Shown: positions 1-32,000, counted from the first letter of the stretch. The stretch: DNA of 32,000 nt from an uncultured archaeon (GCA_964577555.1 CAZNZM010000004.1:23200-55199); one strand, 5' to 3'. The notes: a model not told the origin generated them from the sequence alone. Numbers and translations are program-made.

Positions 1-1888
1 GTTCGTCGGGAGCCGGAACTTTAATCAATTTATCAATCCTGCCTGGACGCATAAGAGCAGGATCAATCAAATCAGGCCTATTAGTAGCAGCCACAAAAAC
101 CACTCCTTTAAGCTCCTCAATACCATCAAGCTCGGTTAAAAGCTGATTAACCATACGTTCGTTCACACCAGCATCAGTATTAATACCGCGTCTTGCAGCA
201 ATACTGTCAATTTCATCAAAAAAAACAACAACAGGGGAAACCTGCCTTGCACGCTGAAAAACCTTTCTAATACCCTTTTCAGATTCGCCAACCCACATGC
301 TTATAAGCTGAGGACCCTTAATCGAAATAAAATTAGCCTCAGACTCAGTTGCAATGGCCTTTGCAATAGCAGTCTTGCCACAACCAGGAGGGCCATAAAG
401 CAAAACACCGGAAGGCGGCTTTATACCCATTTTCTGAAAAGCATCAGGATTTTTCAAAGGCCACTCAATTGCTTGCTTAAGCTCATTCTTCAAATCATCA
501 AGACCGCCAATATCAGACCACTTAACATTAGGCACCTCAATAGTAACCTCCCTCAAAGCAGAAGGTTGAACATCCTTCAATGCCTCAAGAAAATCCTCCT
601 TTTTAACCTCAAGACTTTCAAGCACATCCTCAGGAATAGTTTGCTCCTCGAGATTTATCTTTGGAAGATACCTGCGCAAAGCCTTCATGGCTGCCTCTTT
701 AGCGAGAGCTTCAAGATCAGCTCCGACAAAACCATGAGTAACGGAAGCAAAATAATCCAAATCAACATTTTTCGCCAAAGGCATACCTCTAGTATGAATC
801 CTCAAAATATCAAGACGACCCTTTTTAGAAGGCACGCCAATATCAATTTCCCTATCAAAACGACCAGGCCTACGCAAAGCCTCATCAATACTATTAATCC
901 TATTAGTAGCACCAATAACAATTACCTGACCACGAGCCTCCATACCATCCATTGCGGAAAGAATCTGAGCAACAACCCTTCGCTCAACCTCGCCAACAAC
1001 CTCGTCACGCTTAGGAGCTATAGCATCAATCTCATCAAAAAAAATGATTGAGGGAGCATTCTTCTCAGCCTCCTTAAAAACCTCTCTTATTCTCTCCTCG
1101 GCTTCGCCAACAAACTTACTCATAATACTTGGAGAAGAAATCGCAATAAAATGAGCCTGAGTCTCATTAGCAACAGCCTTAGCCAACAAAGTCTTCCCAG
1201 TACCAGGAGGCCCATAAAGCAAAACACCCTTAGGCGGATTTATGCCAAGCCTCCTAAAAATTTCAGGGTGCTTCATAGGAAGCTCAATCATCTCCCTAAC
1301 CTTTTGAATCTGCTCATCAAGACCGCCAATATCCTCATAAGAAATCCTAGGAATGCCACCAAGAGCATCCTTCACAGGCTCCTCCTTAAGCACAAACTGA
1401 GTAAAATCAGTAACCTTTACAATACCCCTTGGATTAGTATCAATAACCTGATAAATAAAACCAGAACCAAAAACAGAAATCAAAACCTGATCACCCTTAT
1501 TCAAAGGCCTGCCAATAAAATTCTTCTTCAAAATCCTGTCATAACCAGAAGCAATAATCCTAACATCCTGAGTAGGAGCCAACACAACCCTCTTAGCCTC
1601 AGAAAACTCAGCTTTCCTCACACTCACCTTATCGCCAAGAGCAACACCAGCATTACGCCTAATCAAATTATCCATCCTAATAATTCCCTTGCCTTCATCC
1701 TCCTGCCTAGCAGGCCAAATAACAGCAGCAGTACTCTGAGAACCCCTAATCTCAACAATATCCCCAGAAGTCACGCCAAGCTCCTCTTTAGTCCGCCTAT
1801 CAAGAGTAATTATATTACGCCCAACATGAGAAGGATCAGGCTCTTCAACCCTCAAAACAACTTCCTTTTTAGGCTTGCCAGATAACAT
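1..1888 (-). CDS. cdc48: CDC48/VCP-like AAA+ ATPase with two AAA domains (C-terminus runs off the window start)
   Basis: Hand translation of the minus strand from ATG at 1888 gives [30 protein letters not shown]... (CDC48 N-domain). D1 Walker A is GPPGTGKT (rc of ~1195-1225) and D2 Walker A is GPPGCGKT (rc of ~378-401). The sequence [21 protein letters not shown] lies at the window edge. It is absent from the ORF track because it is open at the edge. Confidence 0.93.
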
Positions 1889-1911
1889 AAAAATAAAAAA
1901 AATAAATCTAA

Positions 1912-1919
1912 TTTTAAAA
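1912..1919 (-). promoter_or_regulatory. TATA-like box for cdc48 (leaderless geometry)
   Basis: ttttaaaa is centred ~27 nt upstream of the ATG at 1888. The same spacing recurs at other genes in the window. Confidence 0.4.
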
Positions 1920-1930
1920 CCATGCCATGC

Positions 1931-1940
1931 AAAAAAAAAA
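1931..1940 (-). terminator. Oligo-T (T10 on minus strand) directly after the stop codon of 1941..2753
   Basis: An A10 run on the + strand abuts the TAA (tta at 1941-1943). Oligo-dT tracts are the known archaeal termination signal. Confidence 0.5.
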
Positions 1941-2753
1941 TTAATTAAAATCTCCAACAAACAAACTAATACCGCCATTAGGCAACAAAGAAACTATCTC
2001 ATCAAGCCGAGAAGAAAAATCAACACCAAATTTTACAGAAAACTTTGCAACAACCTTCTTTGCAACCTCGCCCTTAGACTCCCTGCCAAAACCCAAAAAA
2101 ACATGATAATCACAACGAGACTTAACAGCAGAAGGCGGACCAGACATCAATTCAAAATCACTGCCAACCTTCTTGCAACCAATAGCAAACTCCAAAGGCG
2201 TCCTTTTGAACCAAACCCTCTTACCATAAACCATAAAAGCTCCAAGCCCAATTGCTTCACCAGAAGGAGATCTTTTAGTTACTTGTTCAGGCTTTGCAGA
2301 ATAAACATCAATACCTGAAATCTGCTCCTGCCAAGCCTTAGAAAACACAGCAGCAAAAACAGCGGCTTCCCTCATAGAAATTTCCCCCGGTTGCCTTCCA
2401 TCACACTTCAACACAACATGCGAAGCACCATGAATATCAGCATGAAAATAAACATCATCAGGCTTCATAAACTTGTTAACCAAATCCTCATTGCTCTTAG
2501 CATCACGACCTCCAATAACAAGAAAACCCTCACTAGTAAAAAACCAATGAAAACGCTCAAACCACTTTCTCTCACGCTTCTTCAAAACCTGTTTCCCCTT
2601 TGCTTTATGTTCAGCCACTCCAACAATTTTAGAATCCAAAACAGACATGCCAACAGAAAGCCCGTCAAGCTTCCTCTTCCACTTCTTGGCAAGCTCATAA
2701 TAAGCAGCAGCATTTTCATTAACAGATTTTGTAAAATCCAATTCAAGCATCAT
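1941..2753 (-). CDS. Stand-alone NFACT-R (DUF814) domain protein, related to the Rqc2/NEMF/FbpA C-terminal module
   Basis: [54 protein letters not shown]...FSKAWQ...[30 protein letters not shown] matches the NFACT-R consensus as I remember it. The track start at 2756 is TTG, so ATG at 2753 is more likely. It overlaps the upstream stop (TGATG). Confidence 0.8.
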
Positions 2754-3292
2754 CAATCAAAACCCTTTGAACGCCTAATAGCCCTTATCATCGACTCAGT
2801 CCTAGAATCAGATTTATATAAAGGATCAGTTATATAAAAAATTTCCCTAGCCTTAAAAAGATCGGAAATACCTGAAATTGACTCAAAATATTTTTTCCTA
2901 ATGTCAGTATTATAAGAATCAACATCATTGTAAATGTGCCTGCTAATAAAATTAAAATTGTCGTGACCTATTATGCCGGACAAAAAATACAAATTATCAT
3001 CCTTTCTCACTTGCTCGACAAACTTCTCAAGAACCGACTTCTTAGTCAAATCAAGCTGAAGCAACGAAACAACTTCAAGCTTATAACCAAGCTTCCTAAA
3101 ATCAGCCTTCGGTCCATAACCAACAACCAAACCCTGCTTTGCAAGAAAATCAAGAGAAGACTTAACAGTAGCCTTATGATAACCAGTATATTTTTGAATA
3201 GCCCTGATATTAGGCACAACAGCACCAGGCTTCAACAAAGCAGCAAGAATATTCAACCTGACCTCGTCATCCAATTTCATTACAACAGCCAT
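2753..3292 (-). CDS. Winged-helix transcriptional regulator (Lrp/AsnC-like architecture: wHTH plus a small C-terminal domain)
   Basis: LNILAALLKPGAVVPNIRAIQKYTGYHKATVKSSLDFLAKQGLVV looks like a wHTH. The track ORF starts at ATG 3316, but that ATG lies inside a TATA-like palindrome. ATG at 3292 (MAVVMKLDD...) sits ~26 nt downstream of the TATA centre. Alternative starts are 3316 and 3280. Confidence 0.55.
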   Translation of the reverse strand: MAVVMKLDDEVRLNILAALLKPGAVVPNIRAIQKYTGYHKATVKSSLDFLAKQGLVVGYGPKADFRKLGYKLEVVSLLQLDLTKKSVLEKFVEQVRKDDNLYFLSGIIGHDNFNFISRHIYNDVDSYNTDIRKKYFESISGISDLFKAREIFYITDPLYKSDSRTESMIRAIRRSKGFD

Positions 3293-3312
3293 AAAACAAA
3301 AATAAGTATGAT

Positions 3313-31177: not shown

Positions 31178-31320
31178 TAAAAGAAGAAAAAGCACAAGGT
31201 TCAACAGAAACACTATTAGCATTAGGATTGGCAGTAGTAGCAGCTGTAACAGTGGGATTTTTTATCAAAAACTACGTAACCGAAAAAATAGCCCCGGAAG
31301 TGGAGGAAAAGATTGATTAA
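31174..31320 (+). CDS. 48-aa mini-pilin with a class III signal peptide (MIKEEKA-QGSTETLLALGLAVVAAVTVGFF...), below the track cutoff
   Basis: Hand translated. It forms an ATGA overlap with the preceding stop. It has Q at +1 and E at +5 relative to the predicted KA|Q cleavage site. Confidence 0.7.
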   Translation: MIKEEKAQGSTETLLALGLAVVAAVTVGFFIKNYVTEKIAPEVEEKID

Positions 31321-31392
31321 GGAGTTTGACTAACTTATACGTAACAAAAATTATTCATTTTAAAAAAGAAAAAAATGGAGGATGATAAAAAA

Positions 31393-31461
31393 ATGAACAC
31401 AAAAGGACAAGGAGCACTAGAATACCTACTACTAATCGGAGGAGCAGTAGTAGTAGCAGCA
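31393..31461 (+). repeat. 69-nt 5' pilin cassette repeated at 31932-32000 with one mismatch (g/c at cassette position 14)
   Basis: I compared the two stretches directly, base by base. Confidence 0.9.
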
Positions 31462-31779
31462 ATAGTAGTAATAATACTCCTACAACTAGGAGGCACAAGC
31501 GGAACCGCAACAACCGCAACAACAATGTCATCAACAGCAACACAACTAGCAACATTAGCAAATTCAACACCAAACTGCGGTGACTTAGTTGGAGATTCTG
31601 GAATAAGCTCAGCATACATGTGGAACAGCAAAGACAAAACATGCTGGATATCAAGCGGAACACACCCAAACTGCACAGCAACAAAAACAAGTGCAACGAC
31701 AGAAACCACATGTTGCTCAGCTGGAGCTGGATGTAGTGCAACAGCTAATAGTGGTGCCCAAAGATATACATTAATTTAA
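31393..31779 (+). CDS. Pilin with a class III signal peptide (MNTKG-QGALEYLLLIGGAVVVAAIVVIILL), T/S-rich, 6 Cys
   Basis: It has Q(+1)/E(+5). The track start at 31375 is less likely, for three reasons. The paralog at 31932 starts with the same MNTK. A TATA-like cattttaaaaaag lies ~31 nt upstream of 31393. A ggagg lies 11 nt upstream. Confidence 0.8.
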   Translation: MNTKGQGALEYLLLIGGAVVVAAIVVIILLQLGGTSGTATTATTMSSTATQLATLANSTPNCGDLVGDSGISSAYMWNSKDKTCWISSGTHPNCTATKTSATTETTCCSAGAGCSATANSGAQRYTLI

Positions 31780-31801
31780 ATTTAAAAACACAAAAAAACC
31801 C

Positions 31802-31835
31802 GAACCTCCTCTTGGAGGTTCACCCTTTAATTTTT
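31802..31835 (+). terminator. Hairpin terminator: gaacctcc-tctt-ggaggttc followed by accctttaattttt
   Basis: It has a perfect 8-bp GC-containing stem and a 4-nt loop, with a T-rich tail. It lies 22 nt after the pilin stop. Confidence 0.7.
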
Positions 31836-31931
31836 AACAAAAAAAAACTATTTCTACAAAAGCAAAAACTATTTAAATACAAAAAAAAGAAGTAATTGTA
31901 AAAAATAAGAAAAAAAAGGCGAACAAAAAAA

Positions 31932-32000
31932 ATGAACACAAAAGCACAAGGAGCACTAGAATACCTACTACTAATCGGAGGAGCAGTAGTAGTAGCAGCA
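31932..32000 (+). CDS. Second pilin paralog (MNTKA-QGALEYLLLIGGAVVVAA...), 3' end beyond the window
   Basis: Its 5' end is near-identical to 31393..31461, and it is open at the window edge. Confidence 0.75.
   Translation, partial: MNTKAQGALEYLLLIGGAVVVAA

Follow-up and report, generated by a model that had tools for sequence, protein, structure and literature searches.

The 32,000-nucleotide stretch of DNA analyzed here (GCA_964577555.1, CAZNZM010000004.1, positions 23200 to 55199; hereafter the window), from an uncultured archaeon, carries a very strong and ongoing strand-specific mutational asymmetry, which is independent of transcription and selection and is rewriting both the codon usage and the amino-acid usage of its genes. 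The asymmetry is shared, and graded, within a family of Diapherotrites. The + strand of the window contains 13465 A, 7168 C, 6840 T and 4527 G (42.1, 22.4, 21.4 and 14.1 %, respectively; G+C content 36.5 %), which corresponds to an AT skew of +0.326 and a GC skew of -0.226. A exceeds T in 64 of 64 bins of 500 nt and C exceeds G in 62 of 64, and both hold in every 1-kb bin. An earlier note on this DNA had described the + strand as A/C-rich whatever the gene orientation, citing three hand-counted 60-nt lines; our counts agree with these exactly (25081-25140: A33 C12 T8 G7; 10561-10620: A22 C16 T14 G8; 20401-20460: A42 C14 G2 T2), and the contexts given for them were also right, namely the plus-strand gene thrS, a minus-strand T2SSE ATPase gene, and non-coding DNA between 20348 and 20831. 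The feature under study can thus be described as follows:

1..32000, both strands: uniform strand asymmetry, A/C-rich + strand versus G/T-rich - strand, with no polarity change in any 1-kb bin

Gene coordinates were taken from public gene calls, which assign 20 genes of the window to the - strand and 9 to the + strand, and gene identities were taken from Pfam. We decomposed the skew into an orientation-independent (strand) term and a coding-orientation term, using third codon positions, four-fold degenerate sites and intergenic DNA. On their own coding strands, the 9 plus-strand genes use A.64, C.22, G.07 and T.065 at third positions, and the 20 minus-strand genes, when pooled, use T.54, G.26, A.13 and C.08; at four-fold sites the frequencies are A.73 and T.07 in plus genes, and T.68 and A.10 in minus genes. 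Read on the + strand, these correspond to skews of the same sign and of similar size in both gene orientations, as the earlier note had anticipated for third positions. Four-fold AT skew (AT4) is +0.82 in plus genes and +0.75 in minus genes, third-position AT skew is +0.82 and +0.62, and third-position GC skew (GC3) is -0.52 and -0.54. Intergenic DNA has an AT skew of +0.48 and a GC skew of -0.35, so that the equality of A with T and of G with C within a strand is violated with a single sign in genes of both orientations and in the DNA between them. Calculated gene by gene on the + strand, AT4 ranges from +0.54 to +0.97 in 29 of 29 genes, and the minus-strand genes interleaved at 15266..24907 (+0.73 to +0.88) have the same + strand skew as the neighboring plus-strand genes.

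The strand term amounts to 0.77 for AT4 and -0.53 for GC3, as compared with an orientation term of 0.03 for four-fold AT and approximately 0.15 for four-fold GC. Over all positions of the coding sequences (CDS), the strand term is 0.35 for AT and -0.19 for GC, and the orientation term is 0.15 and 0.10, respectively. The sign of the skew does not follow the transcribed strand, and the view taken in the earlier note, that the bias belongs to the DNA strand and not to transcription, is borne out by these terms, by intergenic DNA and by the inverted orthologues described below. The AT strand term declines from 0.77 at four-fold sites to 0.48 in intergenic DNA, 0.19 at codon position 1 and 0.10 at codon position 2. 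Skew that is largest at the least constrained sites is the accepted sign of a mutational rather than a selective cause (PMC3174206), and we therefore attribute the strand term to mutation rather than to selection.

Plus-strand genes drift toward A- and C-ending codons and toward K, T, I, E and Q, and minus-strand genes drift toward T- and G-ending codons and toward V, S, F, R and L. The synonymous preferences named in the earlier note are all recovered, with ATA (83 %), CTA (41 %), GTA (71 %), ACA (80 %), AAA (98 %) and GAA (98 %) favored in plus genes, and ATT (77 %), TTG (51 %), CTT (44 %), GTT (72 %), ACT (76 %) and AAG (65 %) favored in minus genes. Lysine is encoded by AAA in 98 % of cases in plus genes and 35 % in minus genes; for tyrosine, plus genes use TAC (87 %) and minus genes TAT (96 %), and for arginine AGA (89 %) and AGG (58 %), respectively. 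At two-fold sites read on the + strand, A/(A+G) is approximately 0.9 and C/(C+T) approximately 0.7, despite a G+C content of 36.5 %. The split is visible within the two T2SSE ATPases of the window, which are paralogues (28 % identity, E 2e-38) and whose codons for two shared motifs had been read correctly:

10868..10948, - strand: GSGKT (10934-10948; GGG TCT GGA AAG ACT) and IEDT (10868-10879; ATT GAA GAT ACT) of the minus-strand T2SSE ATPase, placed from residues 275 and 298, with G/T-ending codons
28370..28450, + strand: GSGKT (28370-28384; GGC TCG GGA AAA ACA) and IEDT (28439-28450; ATT GAA GAC ACA) of the plus-strand paralogue, with A/C-ending codons

At the protein level, the residues enriched in plus genes (percentages in plus/minus genes) are T (7.9/3.7), E (10.6/6.3), Q (4.1/2.9), I (10.2/7.1) and K (10.5/7.6), and those enriched in minus genes are V (3.7/9.7), S (4.5/7.8), F (3.8/6.1), L (7.7/9.6) and G (5.0/6.1), as well as D. 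This is the amino-acid division proposed earlier with the exception of N, which had been assigned to the plus-strand proteins and is in fact equally frequent in both sets (4.8/4.7).

Because different proteins may differ in composition for functional reasons, we made use of a natural experiment offered by a relative, GCA_038889715.1 (contig JAWAGW010000001.1), whose ThrRS is 75 % identical to that of the window and whose own strand terms are AT4 +0.72 and GC3 -0.55. Seven orthologues (RFC, MiaB, hyp169, T2SSE, T2SSF, NFACT and hyp187) lie on the opposite strand in this genome, relative to thrS, and their third positions are flipped. In the inverted RFC gene, third-position A falls from.63 to.18 and T rises from.06 to.52, and in MiaB T falls from.58 to.05 and A rises from.12 to.67; T2SSE, NFACT, hyp169 and hyp187 are reversed likewise, and the second T2SSF gene (T2SSF2) is half ameliorated only (A.45, T.26). 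Orthologues that have not moved are stable, with third-position A of.64 and.67 in thrS and third-position T of.59 and.64 in Nre. Amino-acid replacements in the inverted pairs are directional as well: counted as the residue on the A/C-rich strand versus the residue on the G/T-rich strand, I/V replacements number 65:7, K/R 41:7, T/S 29:6, N/S 16:0 and T/V 19:3. A gene placed on the other strand thus re-equilibrates to the composition of its new strand, and, since codon and residue shifts both track inversion, the strand dictates synonymous composition and part of the non-synonymous composition.

Single genes of near-zero or intermediate skew stand amid strongly skewed neighbors in the relatives. 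T2SSF2 is one of them, being half re-equilibrated in two relatives (locus L101, 13221-14171, and locus L103, 13249-14157); others are the prepilin peptidase of the 91 %-identical strain introduced below (locus L100, 17384-18502) and a 198-aa open reading frame (ORF; locus L103, 2-598). These outliers, which are mostly pilus-related, look like products of recent inversion, recombination or allele replacement followed by slow amelioration.

The closest sampled strain, which is 91 % identical to the window, comes from Chocolate Pots hot spring in Yellowstone (40-51 C, Fe-rich), and it permits a substitution spectrum to be compiled; the 75 % relative is saturated at synonymous sites. The two strains differ at 485 of 1,808 shared four-fold sites. 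Pair counts on the + strand are 160 for A<->G, 32 for C<->T, 159 for A<->C, 40 for G<->T, 60 for A<->T and 34 for C<->G, so that complementary classes, for which symmetry expects equality, are unequal by 4-5-fold (binomial p 1e-21 for A<->G versus C<->T and 5e-18 for A<->C versus G<->T). When pair counts are divided by base frequencies, under the assumptions of compositional equilibrium and detailed balance and without polarization, the rates on the - strand exceed those on the + strand by 6.5x for C>T, 3.1x for G>T, 2.0x for A>G and 2.5x for A>C. On the - strand, C, G and A give way to T, and A to G, with a corresponding gain of A and C on the + strand. This spectrum matches the damage expected on a strand that is often single-stranded, namely deamination of cytosine and adenine (PMC3269012), together with a large transversion component of the kind that guanine oxidation would produce. 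Temperature or Fe(II) may play a role.

Among relatives the amplitude of the strand term is graded. Compared with AT4 0.77 and GC3 -0.53 in the window (ThrRS 100 %), it is 0.72 and -0.38 in the hot-spring strain (ThrRS 97 %; the two 97 % ThrS variants are one residue apart, too close to yield enough SNPs for polarizing substitutions) and 0.56 and -0.34 in GCA_037441005.1 (77 %), to which the relative with the inverted orthologues can be added. Lower values are found in GCA_000402355.1 (AQRS01; 73 %), with 0.36 and 0.00, which we take to be the single-cell genome of the type species of the phylum, and in a further locus, L105 (71 %), with 0.21 and -0.18. Three loci with a Cdc6 of 62-67 % identity, recovered by a metagenome contig scan, have AT4 of 0.23-0.28 and GC3 of 0.13-0.18, with T and G co-enriched on the cdc6 coding strand; the first 134 residues of Cdc6 as a query gave one match, at 66 %. 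In two relatives of higher G+C the value is approximately 0.06. In every locus fetched through thrS, this gene lies on the A-rich strand. Strand bias in the Diapherotrites family is therefore moderate and dominated by A/T, reaching the top of the range of the background loci described below, and one sub-clade has amplified it approximately three-fold.

As background we used 58 unrelated loci from bacteria and archaea, each 8 kb or longer, analyzed with the same ORF-based decomposition. They were obtained from a scan of genome contigs with ThrS patterns universal to bacterial-type ThrS, in which no close relative is among the matches listed (best identity 55 %). The AT4 strand term of this set has a median of 0.06, a 95th percentile of 0.19 and a maximum of 0.31, so that the 0.77 of the window is approximately 13x the median and 2.5x the maximum; the GC3 term has a median of 0.06, a 95th percentile of 0.25 and a maximum of 0.51, as compared with 0.53 in the window. 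The Borrelia burgdorferi plasmid lp54, included as a positive control, showed the expected sign flip at its replication region, with AT4 of 0.17-0.29 and GC3 of 0.15-0.31. Measured identically, the window is 2.6-4.5x as strong in AT4 and 1.7-3.5x as strong in GC3. The claim that the bias is unusually strong for an archaeon therefore holds, as the AT term exceeds that of all 58 background loci, including four archaeal ones in which it is at most 0.07, and that of lp54. Replication-associated G/C terms in CDS, as reported for 185 bacterial chromosomes, average between 0.001 and 0.096 per phylum, the highest being Spirochaetes (PMC2031905), and the all-CDS GC strand term of the window, 0.19, is twice that highest average. 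The G/C term is thus at the top of the known range and the A/T term is above every locus measured here. The background set also contains an unrelated uncultured bacterium (locus L061, 29.5 % G+C) with a GC3 term of 0.51, as strong as that of the window, and an AT term of only -0.20.

Phenomena of this kind have long been known. As in bacterial (Lobry-type) skew, of which Borrelia burgdorferi is the classic extreme, one strand is enriched in both G and T regardless of which way its genes point, synonymous and intergenic positions are affected most, genes on the two strands differ in their codons and amino acids, and inverted genes ameliorate. Unlike in bacterial skew, the host is an archaeon, A/T asymmetry is larger than G/C asymmetry, and none of the bacterial-type switches at an origin or terminus is seen in 40 kb. 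Four-fold values of this size are otherwise seen in animal mitochondria, and vertebrate mitochondrial DNA has a comparable amplitude at four-fold sites. There too, an A/C-rich strand is opposed to a G/T-rich one, and for the mitochondrial strand exposed as single-stranded DNA an excess of C>T and A>G from deamination of cytosine and adenine has been inferred; joint enrichment of G and T is a feature of bacterial leading strands as well as of the mitochondrial H strand (PMC3269012). Amino-acid composition is described as following the skew in mitochondrial DNA, in the part of the source consulted (PMC2779903). The window shares the opposition of A/C and G/T strands at four-fold sites and, as far as equilibrium-based, unpolarized rates indicate, the excess of C>T and A>G. 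Unlike mitochondrial DNA, it belongs to a cellular chromosome with archaeal replisome genes, and A/T dominates in it, whereas G/C dominates in mitochondria; skew amplitude has no trend over 40 kb.

Two further systems are close to the window in lifestyle or in ancestry. In the order UBA1400 of the Candidate Phyla Radiation (CPR), comprising Ch65, Collierbacteria and Beckwithbacteria, a continuous G/C disparity extends over the whole chromosome (C 29.8 %, G 15.0 %); the skew is monotonic over closed genomes, and unidirectional replication has been proposed (PMC7143001). These organisms are likewise ultra-small, uncultured, and subsurface or thermal, and their bias is likewise independent of gene strand, with a GC skew of -0.33 as compared with -0.23 here. 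The disparity there is confined to G/C, with A approximately equal to T, whereas here the A/T component is the larger one (AT +0.33 versus GC -0.23), so that the window is not of the UBA1400 type. Within the phylum itself, the complete genome of Candidatus Forterrea has a bacterial-type, V-shaped cumulative GC skew with its origin beside cdc6 (PMC5905446). In the portion of that report available to us, skew serves as an assembly check, and extreme amplitude, AT skew and codon usage are not mentioned; unlike the origin described there, the one cdc6 gene within reach of the window sits at no switch. Our literature searches turned up neither extreme skew nor codon usage that depends on the strand for Diapherotrites or for DPANN archaea in general. 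What is new, as far as we can tell, is the domain of life, the amplitude, the dominance of A/T and the gradient within the family.

We consider it probable that the bias stems from the asymmetry of the replication fork, because G and T are co-enriched on the - strand in the keto/amino sign pattern typical of replication, because the complete genome of Forterrea, from the same phylum, has an ordinary origin-centered skew (PMC5905446), and because no other strand-wide process is known. The lagging-strand template would be single-stranded for longer and would thus undergo more deamination of cytosine and adenine and more oxidation of guanine, or it would be copied by a polymerase with a different error spectrum. 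Such an effect would have been amplified in this clade, for which weak repair, slow replication or heat are plausible reasons. On analogy alone, the - strand, rich in G and T, would be the "leading" one, and forks would run through the window toward lower coordinates and on through the cdc6 locus.

In order to extend the view to the left, we used JGI contig 3300037501 Ga0394875_0000821 (55,643 bp), which belongs to the same organism and reaches window coordinate -8059. The flank contains the rest of CDC48, an M50 peptidase, small genes, Orc1/Cdc6 (370 aa; Cdc6_lid and Cdc6_C domains) and the start of the RFC large subunit, and its skew is unchanged, with four-fold AT of -0.47 to -0.91 in the reversed orientation of that locus. 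Orc1/Cdc6 (locus L107, 18347-20813; window approximately -5600 to -8059) is directly followed by the RFC large subunit, and the called start of cdc6 and that of a divergent 152-aa gene overlap by 11 nt, leaving no intergenic room upstream for an origin. An origin within reach was rejected, since the skew keeps its sign, cdc6 lacks a sizeable intergenic region on its upstream side, and repeats in the window are low-complexity A-rich matches.

Several observations weigh against an origin of the bias in ordinary forks. No polarity switch occurs in the 40 kb from -8059 to 32000, including across cdc6 6 kb to the left, nor in approximately 5 kb further to the right in the 91 % strain, and in three relatives one polarity prevails over the 10 kb on either side of cdc6, a gene that lies on the G/T-rich strand in them as well. 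Genes are not in excess on the presumed leading (G/T-rich) strand: the 20 versus 9 in favor of this strand in the window become approximately 25 versus 27 over the composite of approximately 49 kb including flanks. The AT skew is larger than the GC skew, whereas bacteria usually show the opposite, the substitution rates are unpolarized, and a magnitude so far above the background set may mean that a qualitatively different mode of replication is at work. On the other hand, 40 kb is a few per cent of a genome assumed to be approximately 1 Mb in size, and the lack of a switch therefore neither supports nor contradicts two replichores. Similarly, co-orientation of genes with the fork is weak or absent in many archaea, so that the orientation counts are not decisive.

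The asymmetry might instead extend over the whole chromosome, under unidirectional theta, strand-displacement or rolling-circle-like replication, or with a closely spaced origin and terminus, so that no switch exists and one strand, as in vertebrate mitochondria, is single-stranded for long over the greater part or the whole of the genome. The mitochondria-like magnitude and sign, the inferred excess of both C>T and A>G on one and the same strand, the lack of a switch over 40 kb or at cdc6 here and in relatives, and the precedent of UBA1400 among ultra-small bacteria (PMC7143001) all speak for this possibility. We nevertheless hold it to be unlikely, if deserving of real weight, as a 40-kb stretch without a switch is expected under the ordinary model too if the genome is of the assumed size of about 1 Mb, the CPR case has no A/T disparity whereas A/T dominates here, the region encodes ordinary archaeal replication genes (RFC small and large subunits, Cdc6 and topA), and a complete genome of the same phylum has ordinary V-shaped skew (PMC5905446). 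A bolder version, that this Diapherotrites clade replicates strongly asymmetrically (in a unidirectional or strand-displacement-like manner, or with a long-lived single-stranded lagging template) and that the gradient from 0.2 to 0.77 traces the stepwise loss or change of a specific factor of replication or repair, seems to us quite doubtful; if true, one strand would bear a mitochondria-grade mutational burden over most of the genome.

An enzyme targeted to one strand, such as a single-stranded-DNA cytosine/adenine deaminase or a defense-related editor acting on the exposed lagging-strand template, would fit the amplification in one clade (AT4 0.56-0.77 versus 0.2-0.36 in relatives) as the gain or loss of a single factor. 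It is very unlikely, given that no deaminase gene is among the Pfam results for the approximately 45 kb examined and that transversions (A<->C, 159) match transitions (A<->G, 160), which a pure deaminase would not produce, and it would in any case be a sub-mechanism of fork asymmetry and no true alternative. An explanation by mutation or repair coupled to transcription, or by selection acting on codons or nucleotides, can draw only on the small orientation term (0.03 for four-fold AT, approximately 0.15 for four-fold GC, and 0.15/0.10 for all CDS). As the source of the bias it is refuted by skew of the same sign in both gene orientations and in intergenic DNA, and by codon choice that flips with strand in the paralogues and in the inverted orthologues; moreover, one tRNA pool cannot make AAA the preferred lysine codon of one gene set (98 %) and AAG that of the other (65 %), and we regard this explanation as extremely improbable. 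The chance of an artefact of assembly, amplification or chimerism is negligible. Identical sequence is present in independent assemblies (JGI 3300043177, 3300037501 and 3300043267, and Logan SRR12686701), the same bias is found in divergent relatives among metagenome-assembled genomes (MAGs) in NCBI, and ORFs are intact with Pfam matches, which together refute it.

If these numbers hold genome-wide, this would be the strongest strand asymmetry of a cellular chromosome known to us, judged by the 58 loci and Borrelia as benchmarks rather than by a census, and it would be found in an archaeon, where skews are usually weak. Complete genomes across the series from 0.2 to 0.77 could reveal the change in a replication or repair gene that sets the amplitude, and such a change would bear on the old question of whether skew arises from single-strand damage, polymerase error or repair. 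Inference of expression or horizontal transfer from codon usage would be misled by two opposite codon dialects in one genome; I/V, K/R and T/S replacements are directional and dependent on the strand of the gene, which matters for phylogenetics, and tetranucleotide signatures used in binning are strand-dependent.

Gene finding is affected as well, since the bias yields codon-aligned antisense ORFs of up to 513 aa. Spurious ORFs of at least 100 aa that are antisense to real genes are more common on the + strand (15 versus 8, by our own classification of the ORF list), as the earlier note had stated; the scarcity of T on the + strand by itself barely reduces stops. Base composition predicts 6.3 stops per 100 codons on the + strand and 6.0 on the - strand, versus 6.9 for symmetric DNA of the same G+C. 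What matters is codon phase: minus-strand genes avoid codons ending in A, including TTA (3 % of Leu codons), CTA (1 % of Leu codons) and TCA (14 % of Ser codons), the three that read as stops in the codon-aligned antisense frame, and this frame on the + strand is therefore nearly stop-free. The longest product is the following:

10280..11821, + strand: spurious 513-aa ORF, codon-aligned antisense to the T2SSE gene, without a Pfam match, a by-product of the bias

The nearest named relatives of the ThrRS encoded in the window belong to 'Candidatus Diapherotrites archaeon' MAGs, and ThrRS of 100 % identity is found in NCBI, JGI and Logan data. Sequence comparison thus places the window on the chromosome of a DPANN archaeon belonging to the Diapherotrites (Iainarchaeota) lineage. 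No tRNA and no Rfam family was found in the window. Its gene content, from gene calls and, where a family is named, Pfam, is as follows:

1..12971, - strand: block of 14 genes, including CDC48 (3' end outside the window), NFACT-R, a PKD protein, a pilus-like cluster and a T2SSE ATPase
10103-11770, - strand: T2SSE ATPase
13184-15241, + strand: hyp685, no Pfam match
15266-17479, - strand: topA (topoisomerase IA)
17485-17916, - strand: Lrp (Lrp/AsnC)
18074-19621, + strand: ATP-cone protein
19593-20348, - strand: hyp251, no Pfam match
20349..20830, no strand: non-coding spacer, where A/C richness peaks (bin 20001-21000: AT skew +0.51, GC skew -0.44)
20831-22129, - strand: MiaB-like radical-SAM enzyme
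22137-22646, - strand: hyp169
22685-23653, + strand: RFC small subunit
23657-24907, - strand: Nre (archaeal)
25079-26986, + strand: thrS (ThrRS)
27338-29077, + strand: second T2SSE ATPase, T2SSE/FlaI-type like the first
29080-30219 and 30224-31177, + strand: two T2SSF genes
from 31375 (range of plus genes to 31779), + strand: pilins with class-III signal

Within the spacer at 20349-20830, which is 480 nt long and approximately 70 % A, lie two direct copies of a 60-nt repeat (20509-20568 and 20691-20750, 77 % identical), a 47-nt repeat at 20391 and 20448, and a 42-aa ORF called by JGI (20483-20611); no Rfam family, tRNA or terminator was found in it. The 685-aa and 251-aa ORFs are conserved and sizeable and have no Pfam match. 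The latter (19593-20348) keeps 55 % identity in GCA_038889715.1, and F, V, G, C and W together make up 35 % of its residues.

Two separate loci resembling those of type IV pili or archaella are present, at 3558-12971 on the - strand and at 27338-32000 on the + strand, each with a T2SSE ATPase. The first has four-fold skew of 0.54-0.69, somewhat below that of its neighbors, and is absent at the syntenic position in GCA_038889715.1. At the end of the second, two successive pilin genes have a 75-nt 5' end in common (31387-31461 and 31926-32000, 99 % identity). JGI contig 3300043177 Ga0484859_0001526 (32,045 bp) represents the sequence of the window and is identical to it up to approximately 31662, from where (31662-32000) the two depart inside a pilin gene with class-III signal, so that strains carry different pilin alleles. 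The allele of the window itself has no database record, and neither has the gene at 1941-2756, for which a different start codon is the reason. The ThrRS of the window is of bacterial type: after Diapherotrites and other DPANN archaea, its next matches are Thermoanaerobacter and Caldanaerobacter, at 55-57 % identity over the full length, which suggests an old transfer of this gene from a bacterium to DPANN archaea.

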